NCBI RefSeq assembly: GCF_006345805.1
Contig: NW_021824057.1
Location: 1 to 19,965 of the forward strand
Origin: Octopus sinensis
Lineage: Eukaryota
Length of the DNA: 19,965 nucleotides
Direction: 5' to 3'
Shown here: piece after piece, positions 1 to 15,284 of the stretch
Layout: the number at the start of each line of letters is the position of its first letter
How positions within the stretch are numbered: position 1 is the first letter of the stretch
Translations under genes and position numbers: made by a program
The notes under the pieces: model-generated
Told to the model about the DNA's origin: nothing
Seen by the model: the letters and a program-made list of their open reading frames with translations, nothing else
The model's database searches: none

Positions 1-169
1 ATTGTTACGAATTGACGGATGAAACCCTTGATAAATTCCTCAACTGAAGACATCCCCATTTGTATTAAATAATAAAGTGTACAGTTCTATATTTAAGAGA
101 TGAGGAATTATGTACGTTATTTACATTATTTACATTTGACGTATACTTGCCGTCATCTTATTAGTTGTT

Positions 170-215
170 AACACAGCGTTTCTGCTGATATACTCTCCAG
201 CCTTCATCAGGTGTC
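170..215 (-). ncRNA. Minimal type I hammerhead ribozyme motif (probably inactivated copy)
   Basis: Sense strand: GACAC-CTGATGA-a-GGCTG(gagagtatat)CAGCA-GAAA-CGCT-GTGTT. Stem I is GACAC/GTGTT. CGCT replaces the expected CGTT. Confidence 0.7.
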
Positions 216-268
216 TTGGAGCCAAATTTCGAACCTGGGTTCTCGTTCCTAAGGTATATTTTTCGATG

Positions 269-270
<2 letters not shown>

Positions 271-339
<69 letters not shown>
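271..339. repeat. (ATT)n microsatellite, internal to the pLTR
   Basis: Perfect ATT array. It sits at the same relative position in the copy at 10450-10550. Confidence 0.95.
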
Positions 340-341
<2 letters not shown>

Positions 342-415
342 TGTCACCGCTTGGAATCGAGCTCGGAATCTTGGGGTTAGTAGCCCATAATCGCCCACTA
401 CGCCATCCGTGGCCA
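342..415 (-). promoter_or_regulatory. tRNA-like segment with Pol III A/B boxes inside the Penelope terminal repeat
   Basis: Sense strand: TGGCGTAGTGG (A box), GGGCTACTAACCCC (anticodon-like arm), AAGATTCCGAGCTCGATTCC (B-box-like). Homologous to 10561-10616 joined to 10871-10892. Confidence 0.65.
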
Positions 416-439
416 ATTATGGAGTGAATTTTAGGGCTT

Positions 440-1020
440 AATAAATCTAATATTTTCCTATCCTTCCTTAATACCGGTTCCCATATGCTATTCATATCTG
501 CACTCGGTCTGCTTAGGAGGTTGTTGTGCCCTAGCATATGTGCGGCTTGTTTTAGTTTTCGTATTTCTAGTGGTGTTCGCTCTCTATTATTTTAACTTCA
601 TCCCACAGAGGAAGGAGATCTCCATTTTTCCATACATGATCAGCTAGACCCGATTTATCAATATCTCCTCGTGTCACAGCTTTGCAATGTTCCTCTACCC
701 TTATTTTTAGGGGGTGGCATGTTTCGCCTTTGTATAACCTACCACAGCTGCATGGGATGGAGTACACGCAGTCTTTGGTCCTATTCTCTTCTATTGGTGG
801 TTTTACTCGAAGGCGATATTTACGAAGTGTTGTATTACTTTATTACTTTTGAATACTGTCCTGAGGATAAATGGGCCGCATATATTTTGTATCTTTTCGG
901 AGAGGCCTTTCACATAGGATAGACAGACTGTGGACAGTTCATCGGTTTCATCCTCTCTTTTCTTCATAATTGGAGTGGAGTGTATGCTTTGCGGGTAGTT
1001 GTAGCTTAATAGATTGTTAC
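440..1020 (-). pseudogene. Disrupted Penelope ORF C-terminus (GIY-YIG endonuclease)
   Basis: ORF-track pieces 803-1020, 567-767 and ~440-537 are broken by stops and frameshifts. The (V)YSIPCxCG..YKGET..L..R..EH motif is present. The 3' boundary is approximate. Confidence 0.8.
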
Positions 1021-1029
1021 AGGTAGTGA

Positions 1030-1034
<5 letters not shown>

Positions 1035-1083
<49 letters not shown>

Positions 1084-1087
1084 GTAA

Positions 1088-1125
<38 letters not shown>

Positions 1126-1130
1126 ATGAT
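1035..1130. repeat. (AAT)n(AGT)n compound microsatellite
   Basis: Seen directly. Confidence 0.95.
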
Positions 1131-1330
1131 GATGTAATCTCAAGTTTTAAAACAAACACAATTTTCTTATGGTTTCTTAAACATTCTCTAGAACAACACT
1201 TATGTACAAAAACCAAATATATGGCACCCTAGGCATAACACCAACATGAAATTCTAACTTGTCTCTTGAGGTCTCTGGGTGAGACTTGGAGCCAGCTTGT
1301 ACAAATGTAAAGCAAAAGTCAAACATAAAA
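1131..1330 (+). mobile_element. 3' UTR fragment of a non-LTR retrotransposon inserted in (TAA)n, possibly R4/Dong-like
   Basis: Unique segment between AAT arrays, ending 'GAGGTCTCTGGGTGAGACTTGGA...CATAAAATAATAAT'. The family call rests on recalled similarity and the known TAA preference of Dong elements. Confidence 0.4.
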
Positions 1331-1362
1331 TAATAATATAATAATAATAATAAATAATAATA

Positions 1363-1393
<31 letters not shown>

Positions 1394-1447
1394 TATAATA
1401 ATAATAATAATAAATAATAATAATATCATAAATAATAATAATATAAT

Positions 1448-1485
<38 letters not shown>

Positions 1486-1528
1486 TAATAATAATAATAA
1501 TAATTAATAATAATAAATAATAATAATA

Positions 1529-1561
<33 letters not shown>
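1329..1561. repeat. Imperfect (AAT)n microsatellite
   Basis: Seen directly. Confidence 0.95.
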
Positions 1562-1563
<2 letters not shown>

Positions 1564-2082
1564 CAGTACCAGGCAGTGGCTCTCATGGCTTCTGATCTTA
1601 ACTGATTGGAAGTGTCATCATGTACATTGTTTTGTCTTGTATAAAAGATGGTCCACAGCAAATATTCTGCTCAATACCACAGATTTGCTTGTCAGTTGTT
1701 TGACCTTAACCAGTTGAGCATGTCCCTTAGTGGCTGACGATATGTGCATCTCTGATCACGAGCAGAAGTATGGGGGAGCATCATAGCCATGTGTTGAGAG
1801 AGGATTCTTTGGGTTTGAATAAGTCACCTCTGGAAACATGGGTGGTTTTTTCAACATCCTTAAACAATCCTTATTCAGGGACCGTTTGAGCGGGATGGGC
1901 TACTCAACCTGAAGAAAATTCTAGCTGGGCCCCACCTGCAAGGTGATGTGCTGTTTATCTTGATATGAGATCACCATGTCGCGCACATATGGTTGTGATG
2001 ACGGGTAGTCATGATGGGTATATTGGGCTTCGTATATTTTACCCCAGTGTCACTTTGATGGGATGAACTGCTCTCTCACTCA
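1562..2082 (+). mobile_element. Interspersed retroposon-like repeat ending in (AAT)n; central part possibly a Nin/Deu-like SINE domain
   Basis: 1655-1823 has an inverted homolog at 3826-4070, so it is repetitive. It ends 'CTCTCTCACTCAATAATAAT'. The domain name is from recall only. Confidence 0.55.
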
Positions 2083-3865: not shown

Positions 3866-3930
3866 AAATATCCGTCAAATGTAAATAATGTAAATAATGT
3901 ACATAATTCTTCATCTCCTAAATATAGAAC
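3866..3930 (+). mobile_element. Short 3' tail fragment of the Penelope pLTR
   Basis: 'AAATATCCGTCAAATGTAAATAATGTAAATAATGTACATAATTCTTCATCTCCTAAATATAGAAC' matches the reverse complement of ~84-148. Confidence 0.8.
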
Positions 3931-4087: not shown

Positions 4088-4321
4088 GGCGGCGAGCTGG
4101 CAGAAACGTTAGCACGCCGAGCGAAATGCGTAGCCGTATTTCGTCTGCCCTTTACGTTCTGAGTTCAAATTCTGCCGAGGTCGACTTTGCCTTTCATTTT
4201 TTCGGGGTCGATAAATTAAGTACCAGTTACGTACTGGGATCGATAGAATCTACTTAATCCGTTCATCTGTCCTTGTTTGTCCCCTCTATATTTAGCTCCT
4301 TGTGGGCAATAAAGAAATATA
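4088..4321 (+). mobile_element. Full-length tRNA-derived SINE family A
   Basis: Head GGCGGCGAGCTGGCAGAAACGTTAGC, B box GAGTTCAAATTC and tail ...CTTGTGGGCAATAAAGAAATA. Flanked by TTTGTTATAA (4078-4087 and 4322-4331). Confidence 0.9.
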
Positions 4322-4734: not shown

Positions 4735-5165
4735 GGTTTCAAACTTGGGCGCAGAGTCAACAATTTTAGTAGCGGAGAGAGGCGGAGAATAGTTTGTACG
4801 CCGAACTAAATGCTTCCCAGCATTTCGTCCGTGTTTACGTTCTGAATTCAAATACCGCTATGGTCGATTTTGCCTATCAGCCTTCCGCGGTCGATAAAAT
4901 AAGTACCAGATAAGCACCGAGATCAATGTAATCGACTTAGCGCCCCACCCCTCCGAACTTGCTGGCCTTGTGCCTAAGTCTGAAATCAATTTTAGCGGTG
5001 GAGACAAATTGATTACTTCGACCTCAGTATTTGGTTGATATTTTATTTTATCGACCCCGAAAGATTGAAAGGTAAAGTTGACCCCTGCAGAATTTGAACC
5101 CACCACGTAAAGACTCAGAAGAAATGCCGCAAAGCATTTTGTTTGACGAGATAACGTTTCGTATT
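4735..5165 (-). mobile_element. Old SINE family A copy, interrupted by the copy at 4770-4986
   Basis: 'TTTTATCGACCCCGAAAGATTGAAAGGTAAAGTTGACC..GAATTTGAAC' is the reverse family A core. A tail-like piece lies at 4735-4769. Confidence 0.65.
4770..4986 (+). mobile_element. Degenerate SINE family A copy (GGCCTTGTGCC-tail variant)
   Basis: Core 'TACGTTCTGAATTCAAAT..GGTCGATAAAATAAGTACCAG'. Flanked by CAATTTTAG at 4761-4769 and 4987-4995. Confidence 0.7.
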
Positions 5166-5168
5166 TCT

Positions 5169-5790
5169 TATTTCTTTACTGCCCACAAGGGGACACAGAG
5201 GGGACAAACACAGAGGGGACAAACACAGAGGGGACAAACAAGGACAGACAAACGGATTAAGTCGATTATATCGACTCCAGTGCGTAACTGGTACGTATTT
5301 AATCGACCACGAAAGGATAAAATGCAAAGTTGACCTCGGCGGAATTAGAACTCAGAAGGTAAAGACAGACGAAATACCTATTTCTTTACTACCCACAAGG
5401 GGTTAAACACAGAGAGGACAAACAATGACAGACAAACGGATTAAGTCGATTATATCGACCCCAGTGCGTAACTGGTACTTATTTAATCGACCCCAAAAGG
5501 ATGAAAGGCAAAGACGACCTCGGCGGAATTTGAACTCAGAACGTAATGGCAGACGAAATACCTATTTCTTTATTACCCACAAGGGGCTAAACATAGAAGG
5601 GACAAACAAGGACAGACATAGGTATTAAGTCGATTACATCGACCCCAGTGCGTAACTGGTACTTAATTTATCGACCCCGAAAGGATGAAAGGTAAAGTCG
5701 ACCTCGGCGGAATTTGAACTCAGAACGTAATGGCAGACGAAATACCGCTAAGCATTTCGCCCGGCGTGCTAACGATTCTGCCTGCCCGCC
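5169..5790 (-). mobile_element. Head-to-tail trimer of SINE family A (one full unit plus two identically 5'-truncated units)
   Basis: Units are 5563-5790, 5379-5562 and 5169-5378. Both junctions read GACGAAATACC|TATTTCTTTA on the + strand. Confidence 0.9.
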
Positions 5791-6220
5791 AACTTGCCGA
5801 AGCATTTAATACAGTAACCTATGTGTTGCAGAAACTCAATGTATTGGCTTCGAAGTATGATTATCTTACAACTGACTAAAACATTCGTTTCTCAACCCAT
5901 TTTTCTATAAGTACGTCTTTGCATGGCTTTTGCTCTTAGACTATTTACAAAAATCATTACTTTCAATACTGTGCATTTTCTCAAGTACAGAAACTGATAT
6001 TTGTATCAAGATCTGTCTTGATGTAACATCTTCATAATATACATTTCTCAATAAATAACCCTTAGAAGGATGTTTTGTTTGTGTATAAAATTCTGTGGTT
6101 TACTGTCATAGAGCATACATTTGAAAATTCCAGGGAGTCGGAGTTCAAGGTTACGACAACTTACACATGAAAAGACGCAGGCAGTCACTGAGTTATAAAT
6201 ATGTATGTGTGTACGTGTTC

Positions 6221-8394: not shown

Positions 8395-8756
8395 GTGGAG
8401 GCGCAATGGCCCAGTGGTTATGGCAGCGGACTCGCGGTCGTAGGATCGCGGTTTCGATTCCCAGACCGGGCGTTGTGAGTGTTTATTGAGCGAAAACACC
8501 TAAAGCTCCACGAGGCTCCGGCAGGGATGGTGATGATCCCTGCTGTACTCTTTCACCACAACTTTCTCTTACTTCCTGTTTCTGTTGTACCTGTATTTCA
8601 CTCTCTGTCACGCTGAATATCCCGAGAACTACGTTAAGGGTACACGTGTCTGTGGAGTGCTCAGCCACTTACACGTTAATTTCACGACCAGGCTGTTCCG
8701 TTGATCGGATCAACCGGAAGCTTCGTCGTCGGAACCGACGGAGTGCTTCCATCCAT
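8395..8756 (+). mobile_element. Full-length tRNA-derived SINE family C
   Basis: A box TGGCCCAGTGG and B box GGTTTCGATTCCC. 12-bp TSD TCTCCGGAAAAT at 8383-8394 and 8757-8768. Confidence 0.9.
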
Positions 8757-9060: not shown

Positions 9061-9451
9061 GTGGATGGAAGCACTCCGTCGGTTACGACGACGAGGGTTC
9101 CGGTTGATCCGAATCAACGGAACAGCCTGCTCGTGAAATTAACGTGTAAGTGGCTGAGCACTCCACAGACACGTGTACCCTTAACGTAGTTCTCGGGGAT
9201 ATTCAGCGTGACACAGAGAGTGACAAGGCCGGCTCCTTGAAATACAGGTACAACAGAAACAGGAAGTAAGAGTGAGAGAAAGTTGTGGTGAAAGAGTACA
9301 GCAGGGATCACCACCATCCCCTGCCGGAGCCTCGTGGATCTTTTTAGGTGTTTTCGCTCAAAAAACACTCACAACGCCCGGTCTGGGAATCGAAACCGCG
9401 ATCCTACGACCGCGAGTCCGCTGCCCTAACCACTGGGCCATTGCGCCTCCT
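9061..9451 (-). mobile_element. Full-length SINE family C, inverted relative to 8395-8756
   Basis: The reverse complement matches the previous copy along its whole length, with an extra ~18-nt internal segment. Confidence 0.9.
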
Positions 9452-9735: not shown

Positions 9736-9932
9736 ACCGCGAGTGTATTATTGGCGATTTTCTTTCTCCGTCTTCCCTTCCTTTTTCTTTGTTTCTGACG
9801 AAGAGCTCTGCTCGAAACGTTAAATCCACCTTCTTTCTTTCCTTTCCTGTGCGTCCAATAACACTAATAACACTATACTTGTTCCACGTCCTCGCGTTGT
9901 TGTGTTTTCTCTTTGTTCATGTTTGGATTTAC
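9735..9932 (+). mobile_element. Solo pLTR-like fragment of a second Penelope-type family
   Basis: Pyrimidine-rich unit between microsatellites that carries a minimal hammerhead. No sequence similarity to the first pLTR outside the ribozyme core. Confidence 0.55.
9791..9825 (+). ncRNA. Minimal type I hammerhead ribozyme motif with intact core
   Basis: GTTT-CTGACGA-a-GAGC(tct)GCTC-GAAA-CGTT-AAAT. Predicted cleavage is after 9821. Confidence 0.75.
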
Positions 9933-10357
9933 TATGTGTGTGTGTGTGTGTGTGTGTATACATAATTCGTTTATTTATTTATTTTTACAAATATTTTCAT
10001 CTCGAGCGTGCGTTTCTTATATATAGTTATTGTATACGATAGTATGGTATTGTAAATGTAAACCAGAAAATATTTCTTTACAGTTATTTTGACACCTAGA
10101 GTACAATTAATTCTTAGATTTACTGTGTATGATTCTATAATGTAATTTTACTGTAAAAATACATTTAACAGCTTTCTTTGACACCTGGCATACAATTATC
10201 CCCCACACACACACACTCATACACATATATAAATAGATAGGTACACATACATACTCTTCAATAATGGATGCTGAATAATTTAAAGTAAATTCAAAACTAA
10301 CAAGAAACGTACATTATTTACATTTGACGGATATTTGTCCTCGTCTTGTTTGTTGTT

Positions 10358-10403
10358 AACACAACATTTCGGCTAATATACCTTCCAGCCTTCTTCAGGT
10401 GTC
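10358..10403 (-). ncRNA. Minimal type I hammerhead ribozyme motif (second copy of family 1)
   Basis: Sense strand: GACAC-CTGAAGA-a-GGCTG(gaaggtatat)TAGCC-GAAA-TGTT-GTGTT. TGTT looks like CpG decay of CGTT. Confidence 0.7.
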
Positions 10404-10476
10404 TTGGGGAAATTTCGAACCTGGGTTCTCATTCCTAAAGTATTTTTCGATGTTGTTGTTATTATTATTATTATTA

Positions 10477-10528
<52 letters not shown>

Positions 10529-10616
10529 TATTATTATTATTATTATTGTTTATTTTTCAGGTCACTGCTTGGAATCGAATACGGAATATTGAGGTTAGTA
10601 GCCCGCGCTCTTAACC

Positions 10617-10848
10617 TATTTCTTTACTACCCAGAAGGGGCTAAACACAGAGAGGACAAACAAGGACAGACAAACGGATTAAGCCGATTTTACCGACTCC
10701 AGTGAATAACTGGTACTTATTTAATCGACCCTGAAAGGATGAAAGGCAAAGTCGACCTCGGCGGAATTTGAACTCAGAACGTAACCGCAGACGAAATACG
10801 GCTACGCATTTCGCCCGGGGTGCTAACGTTTCTGCCAGCTCGCCGCCT
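10617..10848 (-). mobile_element. Full-length SINE family A inserted into the tRNA-like head of the solo pLTR
   Basis: Perfect 22-bp TSD TTAGTAGCCCGCGCTCTTAACC at 10595-10616 and 10849-10870. Confidence 0.92.
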
Positions 10849-11278
10849 TTAGTAGCCCGCGCTCTTAACCGCTAGGCCATATGCCCGTGGGCCTAACAAG
10901 ATACGTGTTATCAAATATTGAAACGCATTCGTGAATTAGGGTCCATCCTGTTTAGAAGTATTTTCAGTCTACGATTTAAGTTTCAACTATGAAAGCAACA
11001 AAATTCCATCCTAAAACTAACTGTCGATGTATACTGAATATGAATATGAAATACAATTCTTTCTTTTTGTTTTCTTTTTTAATTTTTTTGTTTTTTGTTT
11101 TTCGGTTCCTTCTCTTTTTTTACCACAGACTGTTAAACAAGTGGAACTGGCAATCCAACACACGCTCTGCACCATTTACCATAACTACAGCAGGCCGTTA
11201 AAAATATCTCCAACAGCATAACTCGTTCTTGTTGAACTTATTTAACCTACTTACCATCGAAATTGTAATAATAACAAT

Positions 11279-13689: not shown

Positions 13690-14103
13690 ATTCTGTTATT
13701 CTGTAACTTTTTTCAGTCATTAGACTGCGGTCATGCTGGAGCACCGCATGAAAGGGTTTTAGTCGTACAAATCGACTCCATGACTTATTCTTTGTAAGTC
13801 TAGTACTCTTTTGCCGAATCGCTAAGTTACGGGGACGTAAACACACCAACATTGATGTCAAGCGATGGTGGGAGAGACAAACACAGACACAGACATGCGG
13901 CGCATATATACATACATAAATACATATATATATATATACGACGGTCTTCTTTCTGTTTCCGTTCACAAAATCCACTCACAAGGCTCTGGTCAGCCCGAAG
14001 CTTTAGTAGAAGACACTTGCCTAAGGTGCCACGCAGTGGGACTGAACGCAGAACCAATGCGGTTGGAAAGCAAGCTTCTTACCACACAGCCACGCCTACG
14101 TCC
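13690..14103 (-). mobile_element. Full-length SINE family B
   Basis: Colinear with 19645-19965 and with the reverse complement of 11928-12368. Confidence 0.88.
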
Positions 14104-14670
14104 CCACACAGCCACGCCTACGTCCCCACACAGCCACGCCTACGTCCCCACACAGCCACGCCTACGTCCCCACACATCCACGCTTGTGCCCCCACACAAG
14201 CAGGCCTGCATCTCCACACAGCAACGCCATAACCTCCACACAGCCACGCCTGCACTTGCACACAGCCATGCCTGCACCTCTATACAGCCACACCAGTGCC
14301 TCTGCACTGTCACGCCTGCGCCTCTGCACTTCTACCCCTGCGCCTACGCACAACCACACCTGCGTTTCCGCACAGTCATGCTTGCGCCTCCGTGCAGTCA
14401 TGCCTGCGCCTCCACACAACCATCTCAATGCCTCCACACTGCCACGCTTGCGCCGCCACACAGCAACCCCCATCACCACCACACAGCCACACCAGTGCCT
14501 ATGCACTGTCACCCCTGCGCCTCCACACTTCCACCCCTGAGCCTACGCACAAATACGCGTGCGCCTCCGTACAGCCACGCCTGCGCCTCCACACTTCCAC
14601 CCCTGAGCCTACGCACACATACGCCTGCGCCTCCGCACAGCGACGCCTGCGCCTCAACACAGCAACGCCC
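14082..14670. repeat. 22-bp minisatellite (~27 units) derived from the 5' end of SINE family B
   Basis: Four perfect units of CCACACAGCCACGCCTACGTCC (14082-14169), then diverged units that keep the ~22-bp phase. Confidence 0.9.
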
Positions 14671-15284
14671 GAATCTGCAAATGATGGAATAGTCGGAGCT
14701 GGGACATCTTTGATCTTAAATCTGTTCTCACAAGCTAAACAACAGCTACAACAGCGATAGCAGCATGCATGAATGTAATGCAGAAAACAAGGGTTCAATA
14801 CAGGATTGTCCTTTCCTTTTCTTTTATTTTTGTTGTTTGTTTTTACTTGCCTGTTTGTTGGTCAAGTGTTTTACACTTAGGCAATATAGTTCCTGTTTCC
14901 TTTTCCTTTTACCAAACTATAATTGACAATAGCTGTAAAACACACGCACGCGTGCACACATATTCATACATACACGCACATGTATATCATATATATATAT
15001 ACACATATGTACATACATTCATATATATATATAAGCAATAATAAATCTGTGAGCGAGGTATAAACAGTAGCTGCACGACATCGTGAAGTATATTTGCCAC
15101 CTAAATCTGGCTAACCCTTAAGAGTTAATCCTACTCTAGCTTGTAGCCCCAGGAAGACATCTCCTCCAGCTGGCTATTGACACACTTTCTGTGCCCTATC
15201 AGTATTTGCAAAAGGAAGTCTTCGTTCCTATCTCCAGCCTCTCGCAATATCATTTACAATCTCATCGAAAAGGGCGTTAATATA

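Follow-up and report, generated by a model that had tools for sequence, protein, structure and literature searches.

A tRNA-Arg(ACG)-like head, probably an internal Pol III promoter, in the terminal repeat of a coding Penelope-like retrotransposon of Octopus sinensis

Among the Penelope-like elements (PLEs), PAc (Poseidon_Ac) of Anolis carolinensis combines a single ORF, encoding reverse transcriptase (RT) followed by a C-terminal GIY-YIG endonuclease, with tandem pseudo-LTRs (pLTRs), inverted 5' pieces, two 3' ends giving an optional tail, and a hammerhead overlapping the ORF start (PMC11167929; here and below, statements ascribed to articles concern their accessible portions). The octopus element described here resembles PAc in all of these respects. 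On the other hand, neither a tRNA-derived head nor a Pol III promoter is described in the accessible portion of PMC11167929, whereas the octopus repeat opens with A and B boxes and its unit is devoid of T4 runs. The minimal hammerheads of metazoan PLEs are characterized by a short helix I, a longer helix II, an extra base between positions 9 and 10.1, a G10.1-C11.1 pair and a palindromic helix III remnant, and occur in head-to-head pairs (PMC4209133); the octopus motif shows no difference from that description, the upstream tRNA head being the octopus addition. The TRIMp3 elements (Cassandra, Helenus and Ajax; PMC10886601) share with the octopus repeat a Pol III promoter derived from a small RNA and placed in a terminal repeat, with the boxes kept and the tRNA function lost, but they are non-autonomous LTR elements of 311-1263 bp, whereas the octopus repeat belongs to a 2.7-kb coding PLE. 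Among the schistosome SINE-like elements Sm-alpha and Sj-alpha, Sm-alpha likewise combines Pol III transcription with a hammerhead (PMC6765202), and the animal non-LTR retrozymes (bioRxiv 10.64898/2026.07.22.740005) are likewise non-coding offspring derived from pLTRs. Both groups are non-coding and often arranged in head-to-tail tandem, whereas the octopus solo repeats lie scattered or head-to-head and an ORF is flanked by this very repeat. The closest published designs are TRIMp3 (Pol III promoter in a terminal repeat) and Sm-alpha (Pol III and hammerhead), both of which are non-coding in the accessible descriptions. No tRNA-derived head in a PLE repeat was described in the article texts accessible to the search.

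Interspersed repeats derived from tRNA are also a known component of octopus DNA: the SINEs OK, OR1 and OR2 were reportedly described by Ohshima and Okada in 1994, and OR1 and OR2 are said to derive from tRNA-Arg. OR1 and OR2 are cited as CORE-SINEs, which sets them apart, by description only, from the repeat studied here with its Penelope coding body. This repeat may nevertheless be identical with OK especially, or with OR1 or OR2.

The locus lies in a window of 19,965 nucleotides (the whole stretch of DNA analyzed; O. sinensis contig NW_021824057.1). Positions 83-440 on the minus strand are the decayed 3' pLTR of a protein-coding Penelope/Poseidon-type retrotransposon, reading in the order of tRNA-like head, (AAT)n, minimal hammerhead and tail. 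The parts of the insertion are as follows.

447-1020, minus strand: 5'-truncated remnant of the Penelope ORF (linker and GIY-YIG endonuclease), from tblastn against natural copies in three frames
413-446, minus strand: stop-codon region and short spacer ending in a small hairpin, the junction common to the ORF-end copies
340-412, minus strand: tRNA-Arg(ACG)-like head, a predicted Pol III type-2 promoter, from alignment; the 5' ends of copies pile up here
395-405, minus strand: A box of the head
374-386, minus strand: anticodon-like arm of the head
353-364, minus strand: B box of the head, altered in this copy
271-339, minus strand: (AAT)n tract, predicted 5' untranslated spacer
216-270, minus strand: start of the repeat body and site of the in-frame start codon of the family, from the family majority frame
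170-215, minus strand: minimal type I hammerhead motif with two key positions altered, matching the accessible description in PMC4209133
82-169, minus strand: remaining body, the first coding stretch of the next unit, including the optional Penelope tail of 25-40 bases
1021-1083, plus strand: inverted 5' arm of the same insertion (the last bases of the head and (AAT)n), read from the sequence

The GIY-YIG remnant, head, (AAT)n, hammerhead and tail thus sit on one strand, the minus, as the sequence-only reading had placed them. The ORF remnant is disrupted by frameshifts and one stop codon and lies in three broken frames. The tract consists of AAT or AAC and varies in length across the family, and the position corresponding to the family start codon (approximately 246-244, minus strand) is not ATG in the window copy. 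In the hammerhead motif, 215-211 face 174-170 as stem I, and the core (210-204) is followed by a bulged A, stem II and GAAA-CG-UH. The window copy differs from the family majority at C11.1 and U16.1 of the hammerhead and in the B box, and in folding it gave no hammerhead fold but folded otherwise; this copy is dead in both head and hammerhead. The inverted arm at 1021-1083 may continue at 2082-2118 behind later insertions, a match to the family body being found at 2094-2118. Inverted pieces at the 5' side are usual for Penelope insertions and were seen in PAc (PMC11167929).

Further pieces of the family occur in the window. A second copy at 10309-10893 (minus strand) begins at the hairpin before the head, and an abundant tRNA SINE (approximately 10617-10849), flanked by a target duplication of 20 bases, interrupts this head, while a short piece comprising only the tail lies at 3866-3930 (plus strand). 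A repeat of approximately 520 bases ending in (AAT)n at 1560-2081 (plus strand) recurs inside the AAT tract of the family, as in L002, L041, L106, L110, L120, L160 and L210. A GC-rich minisatellite with a 22-base unit occupies 14073-14705.

The full unit comprises the head, (AAT)n, an ATG, the hammerhead motif, an ORF of approximately 835 codons and a short spacer followed by the next head, spanning approximately 2.67 kb. A search with the 5' end of the ORF yielded 30 loci, of which L221-L224 are nearly identical, and in the full-length copies the tail of the repeat runs straight into the ORF. An in-line 5' repeat with its head was kept in three of the 30, with starts, relative to the A box, at -4 for L228, the fold-back hairpin for L244 and -9 for L246; the other loci show truncation, inversion or an interruption at a point further 3'. 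A complete repeat-ORF-repeat unit of approximately 2.67 kb, that is, a pair of direct pLTRs of the Penelope type, starts at the head in L271, and L272 (head-body-ORF-head, from the head to that of the next unit) and L273 (the same as L228, traced over 844 bases of the ORF) also start there. In the family majority, the open frame begins at the ATG of the repeat body, passes through the hammerhead and continues as the 785-codon ORF, amounting to approximately 835 codons, and the start codon is well kept among the aligned copies (A in 101/101, T in 94/100 and G in 97/99). The order of head, (AAT)n and hammerhead proposed from the window alone stands, with the correction that the hammerhead lies inside the start of the coding region, downstream of an in-frame ATG. 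We also considered an intron of 38-47 bases (GT-AG) at the repeat-ORF boundary, joining an upstream ATG frame to the ORF. None of the 15 joints inspected, out of 16 in the RNA reads, was this GT-AG joint, at an ORF depth of approximately 10-30, and no intron-less copy lacking the stretch was found in the genome. As the in-frame ATG in the repeat body makes an intron unnecessary, we rejected this idea, albeit it is not disproved.

Exact matches to a 21-mer of the head and a 25-mer of the hammerhead occurred 1,583 and 3,662 times in the genome (G000), and the reversed controls gave none, so that neither motif is a product of chance. To collect the 3' ends of the ORF, a DNA search with the endonuclease retrieved 29 other loci, or 27 after two duplicates of L050 were set aside; these are the best-scoring copies, not a random sample. 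In 23 of the 27, the head follows the ORF end at the same junction, and the four exceptions (L033, L044, L057 and L058) are deleted or cut at the junction. Together with the 5' repeats, which carry the head as well, these copies bear out the earlier proposal that the head belongs to ORF-bearing copies instead of being a chance SINE. The head-bearing architecture is family-wide. Copies extend upstream into RT (RVT_1 with an E value of 1.5e-9 in L059, with YVDD present), and the family majority is a single open frame with the DKG and YVDD motifs through to the C-terminus. GIY-YIG motifs are visible in the family ORF, RT coming first and the putative endonuclease C-terminal, and PF01541 (GIY-YIG) was found on 12-28% of the members of the nearest Atlas clusters. 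A Pfam search of family copies did not call the endonuclease as GIY-YIG, and a sequence search of the PDB returned no match. We regard the element as Penelope-like of the C-terminal EN+ type, with RT and GIY-YIG in a single ORF, in which the endonuclease is predicted from the motifs and the Atlas look-alikes; the label Poseidon is based on the domain order and the resemblance to PAc. An antisense piece of the family lies upstream in 39 of 70 loci picked by the hammerhead.

The family majority possesses all the features of a minimal type I hammerhead, namely the CUGANGA and GAAA core, the NUH triplet, stems I and II and the palindromic helix III remnant, and we assign it to the minimal PLE hammerheads as described in the accessible portion of PMC4209133, with cleavage being a prediction. 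Among the 52 copies that had not been picked by this motif, only seven were fully intact, and L002 folds with stems I and II. Rfam hammerhead models gave no match in window 1-1500 or 18 loci, and the copies, belonging to one decaying family, provide no covariation evidence. The hammerhead claimed at 170-215 is therefore borne out as a motif at that place, complete in the family majority, and not as a fold of the window copy. At 9745-9945 (plus strand) lies a member of a different family, approximately 200 bases long, which has a minimal hammerhead motif of its own (core at 9795). It is T-rich and usually followed by (TA)n; all of the 40 scored loci, from 1,008 candidates, matched, and no ORF match was found in 20 loci.

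The majority head aligned with the host tRNA-Arg(ACG) over 74 columns with 50 identities (score 70; z 9.6 against shuffles). The comparison covered 11 isotype/anticodon types retrieved from the genome, and the next-best type scored 58.5; Arg-TCT, Ala, Cys, Thr, Lys, Ser and Phe were rejected as origins, all scoring below tRNA-Arg(ACG). The initial guess of tRNA-Arg(ACG) consequently applies to the family majority within these 11 types; for the window copy alone, ACG does not rank first. In the majority head, the A box and the B-box core are exact and at tRNA spacing, the T arm is unfolded (0.0 kcal/mol) with the T-stem pairing lost, and the acceptor stem pairs at approximately five of seven positions, only with a shift, in the tRNA alignment. 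Retention of the boxes beside an unfolded T arm is what a promoter, and not a tRNA, would lead one to expect. ARAGORN called no tRNA in the window or 37 loci, and Rfam (including RF00005) found none in window 1-1500 or 18 loci; we do not regard the head as a functional tRNA gene. That the covariance models recognize neither tRNA nor hammerhead counts against the sequence-only reading on this point, and both motifs are supported by descriptor and alignment tests. Heads of the SINE type and minimal hammerheads fall below these models, which may explain the misses. By its A and B boxes and tRNA homology, the head qualifies as a predicted tRNA-derived Pol III type-2 promoter.

Genes for tRNAs, and SINEs, were encountered as well. 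A tandem array with approximately 90 pattern matches to tRNA-Arg(ACG), mostly 206 bases apart, lies at G000:C2:3121910-3162240, ARAGORN calling nine genes in the part sampled as L149, and seven clustered tRNA-Cys genes, one with the anticodon ACA, lie in L077 (G000:C12:22959503-22962574). In the window, two tRNA-headed SINE copies of approximately 390 bases at 8397-8755 (plus strand) and 9062-9450 (minus strand) are inverted approximately 300 bases apart and are 90% alike with gaps and 98% alike over the first 108 bases. Three tandem SINE copies with a spacing of 184 bases occupy 5192-5795, with inverted copies at 4149-4319 and 4786-4939.

The boundaries of the copies were counted from the A box, tRNA position 1 being -7. 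Going along contig C1 in order of position, we sampled the first 70 exact matches to the hammerhead, from the total of 3,662, and left out 25 loci with no head or ORF piece within 1.3 kb upstream, which end in the body or the AAT tract or carry later insertions. Of the 45 loci reaching the head or ORF, seven end at +67 to +1, 25 at 0 to -15, one at -16 to -44, and 12 in the ORF, three fold-back copies being assigned to -12 by rule. The rates of 5' ends per base are 0.23%, 4.1% and 0.27% in the first three intervals, respectively; 25 of the 33 starts between +67 and -44 fall into 16 bases around tRNA position 1 (binomial P 3e-15), and 25 of the 38 copies at risk end at this pile-up. In a second sample, in which the first 30 head matches represent 29 insertions and fold-backs were judged by eye, 24 copies start at -3 to -15 or fold back there, and five run into the ORF. 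The commonest single start in this sample is -7 (7/29), and many starts lie at -11 to -15. Since most copies reaching the head start right at it, the head is likely the element's own Pol III promoter. The main confounder is a weak hairpin at -15 to -3, which overlaps the pile-up (-4.8 kcal/mol, against -6.7 for hammerhead stem II) and could itself stop or fold back cDNA; stops at stem II are not scorable in the first sample, as it was anchored at the hammerhead. At the other side, the 3' ends of 69 scored loci cluster at body 172-175 (32 loci) and 147-152 (23 loci), and the same two ends appear in RNA reads. Two 3' ends 25-40 bases apart match the optional PLE tail and, in PAc, were tied to two internal start sites of reverse transcription (PMC11167929). 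If priming of the PAc type holds, the solo repeats would be copies of the 5' end of the RNA, and their left boundary would mark the RNA start. Most of the loci sampled hold a single copy or a head-to-head arrangement, and tandem pairs such as L151 are few.

The claim that the sense strand lacks a T4 run proved true both for window 83-1020 and for the majority unit. The 785-codon majority ORF contains no T4 run against 3.0 expected under synonymous shuffles (P 0.023; 0.012 and 0.018 with two other shuffles), and neither do the head and body, leaving the whole unit of approximately 2.7 kb without one. In 41 kb of natural copies, which are not independent, there were 17 runs against 91 expected. 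The T4 deficit is modest and suggestive only, since the majority is also free of G4 runs and shows a comparable shortage of A5 (P 0.03). Beside its motif, the second minimal-hammerhead family of the window is rich in T, and in 19 other loci nothing matching the present head was found; it makes a weak contrast, no ORF match having been found for it in 20 loci. RNA data came from three raw, unstranded runs of a related species. As 88-89% of the repeat-matching reads continue into unrelated sequence, they mostly show copies inside host RNAs and revealed no transcription start, and the depth over the ORF was approximately 100-fold below that over the repeat. A search of sequencing runs listed none containing element RNA.

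From these data, we consider it probable that the tRNA-Arg(ACG)-like head acts as an internal Pol III promoter fixing the template RNA's 5' end, a judgment that includes the variant with two promoters (see below). The capture of a tRNA promoter into the pLTR, as first supposed, is thus upheld insofar as the head is family-wide, and its use by Pol III is likely in the light of the copy boundaries and the missing terminators. Pol III transcription would begin 7-15 bases upstream of the A box and, for want of a T4 run, continue into the ORF. With this RNA as template, the element protein would then initiate reverse transcription internally, at the two tail sites, as PAc has been shown to do (PMC11167929), and cDNA copied back to the RNA start would yield the many SINE-like solo repeats. 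Reverse transcription from the second repeat of a tandem transcript would yield ORF-bearing copies like that in the window, and cleavage by the hammerhead, within the coding region, would require a dimer or the help of protein. Against a Pol III promoter, both boxes are intact in only 10 of the 27 ORF-end copies, as the hammerhead is in only seven of 52. It is doubtful that Pol III makes the whole RNA of 2.7 kb and 835 codons as an intron-less transcript that has been purged of terminators and, with an (AAU/AAC)n leader, is translated although it has no cap. Also counting against the Pol III reading, RNA from Pol III, being uncapped, should translate poorly, Kojima holds the processivity of this polymerase to be too low for autonomous elements (PMC10886601), and characterized PLEs show promoter-and-intron arrangements with Pol II marks (PMC8557442).

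A version with two promoters, which keeps the Pol III promoter and denies the Pol III mRNA, is a possibility that we take seriously, short of preferring it. Here the head would direct only short-to-medium template RNAs giving rise to solo repeats, while Pol II, transcribing copies that are tandem or host-embedded, would provide for the protein. This would solve the cap problem, and it suits both the excess of solo repeats over ORF copies (only 12 of the 45 reach the ORF) and the low depth of the ORF in RNA reads. Yet T4 is missing over the whole ORF, not only over its start, and near-full-length copies likewise begin at the head.

We find it unlikely that the head is a passenger, i.e., an old tRNA or SINE insertion in a master copy transcribed by Pol II from its own promoter or by read-through, with the hairpin at -15 to -3 making the pile-up through RT stalling or cDNA fold-back. 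Many copies do fold back exactly at this hairpin, which closes the stop-codon and spacer segment (413-446 in the window), the known PLE promoters are located in the pLTR and bear Pol II marks (PMC8557442), and the RNA reads show the repeat mainly inside other transcripts. However, the hairpin is weaker than stem II and yet two-thirds of the copies at risk (25/38) end there, the start exactly at tRNA position 1 recurs in the head-picked copies, the family majority has kept its boxes but not the T stem, and no T4 run occurs in the unit.

It is improbable that the tRNA-like fold serves as an RNase P site where multimers transcribed by Pol II are cut at tRNA position 1 into unit-length RNAs: that position is the commonest single start in the head-picked sample, but the T arm is unfolded, the acceptor stem is imperfect, ARAGORN called no copy, and many starts lie further upstream at -11 to -15. 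A reading in which a separate family of tRNA SINEs either was inserted here by chance or has only the head in common with the repeat is largely refuted and scarcely credible. Although the genome is rich in tRNA SINEs and the window holds two other families, the ORF-head junction is the same in 23 of 27 copies, and 23 of the 29 head-picked copies carry the Penelope body (20 downstream and three on the inverted arm), the only other recurrent sequences seen with the head being elements that lie in the AAT tract; moreover, the two other SINE families have heads that give lower alignment scores (53.5 and 30) than does the host tRNA (70). The coding element carries the head in its own repeat, the body of which is its coding start, so that the repeat is not an independent SINE.

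Coding retrotransposons are usually transcribed by Pol II and non-coding SINEs by Pol III, the weak processivity of Pol III being given as the reason (PMC10886601). A promoter of the Pol III type, otherwise known from non-coding parasites such as SINEs, here likely resides in a coding Penelope, and a coding Penelope with a 5' tRNA promoter, if true, would break this division. Should the mRNA itself be made by Pol III, one element would be both an autonomous retrotransposon and its own SINE. As the copy boundaries predict the RNA start within approximately 10 bases, the transcription cycle of this PLE is easy to test. Annotation is affected too: the thousands of copies that probably bear the label of tRNA SINE in this genome are Penelope ends, and the family would offer a concrete route from a PLE to SINE-like, hammerhead-bearing repeats.
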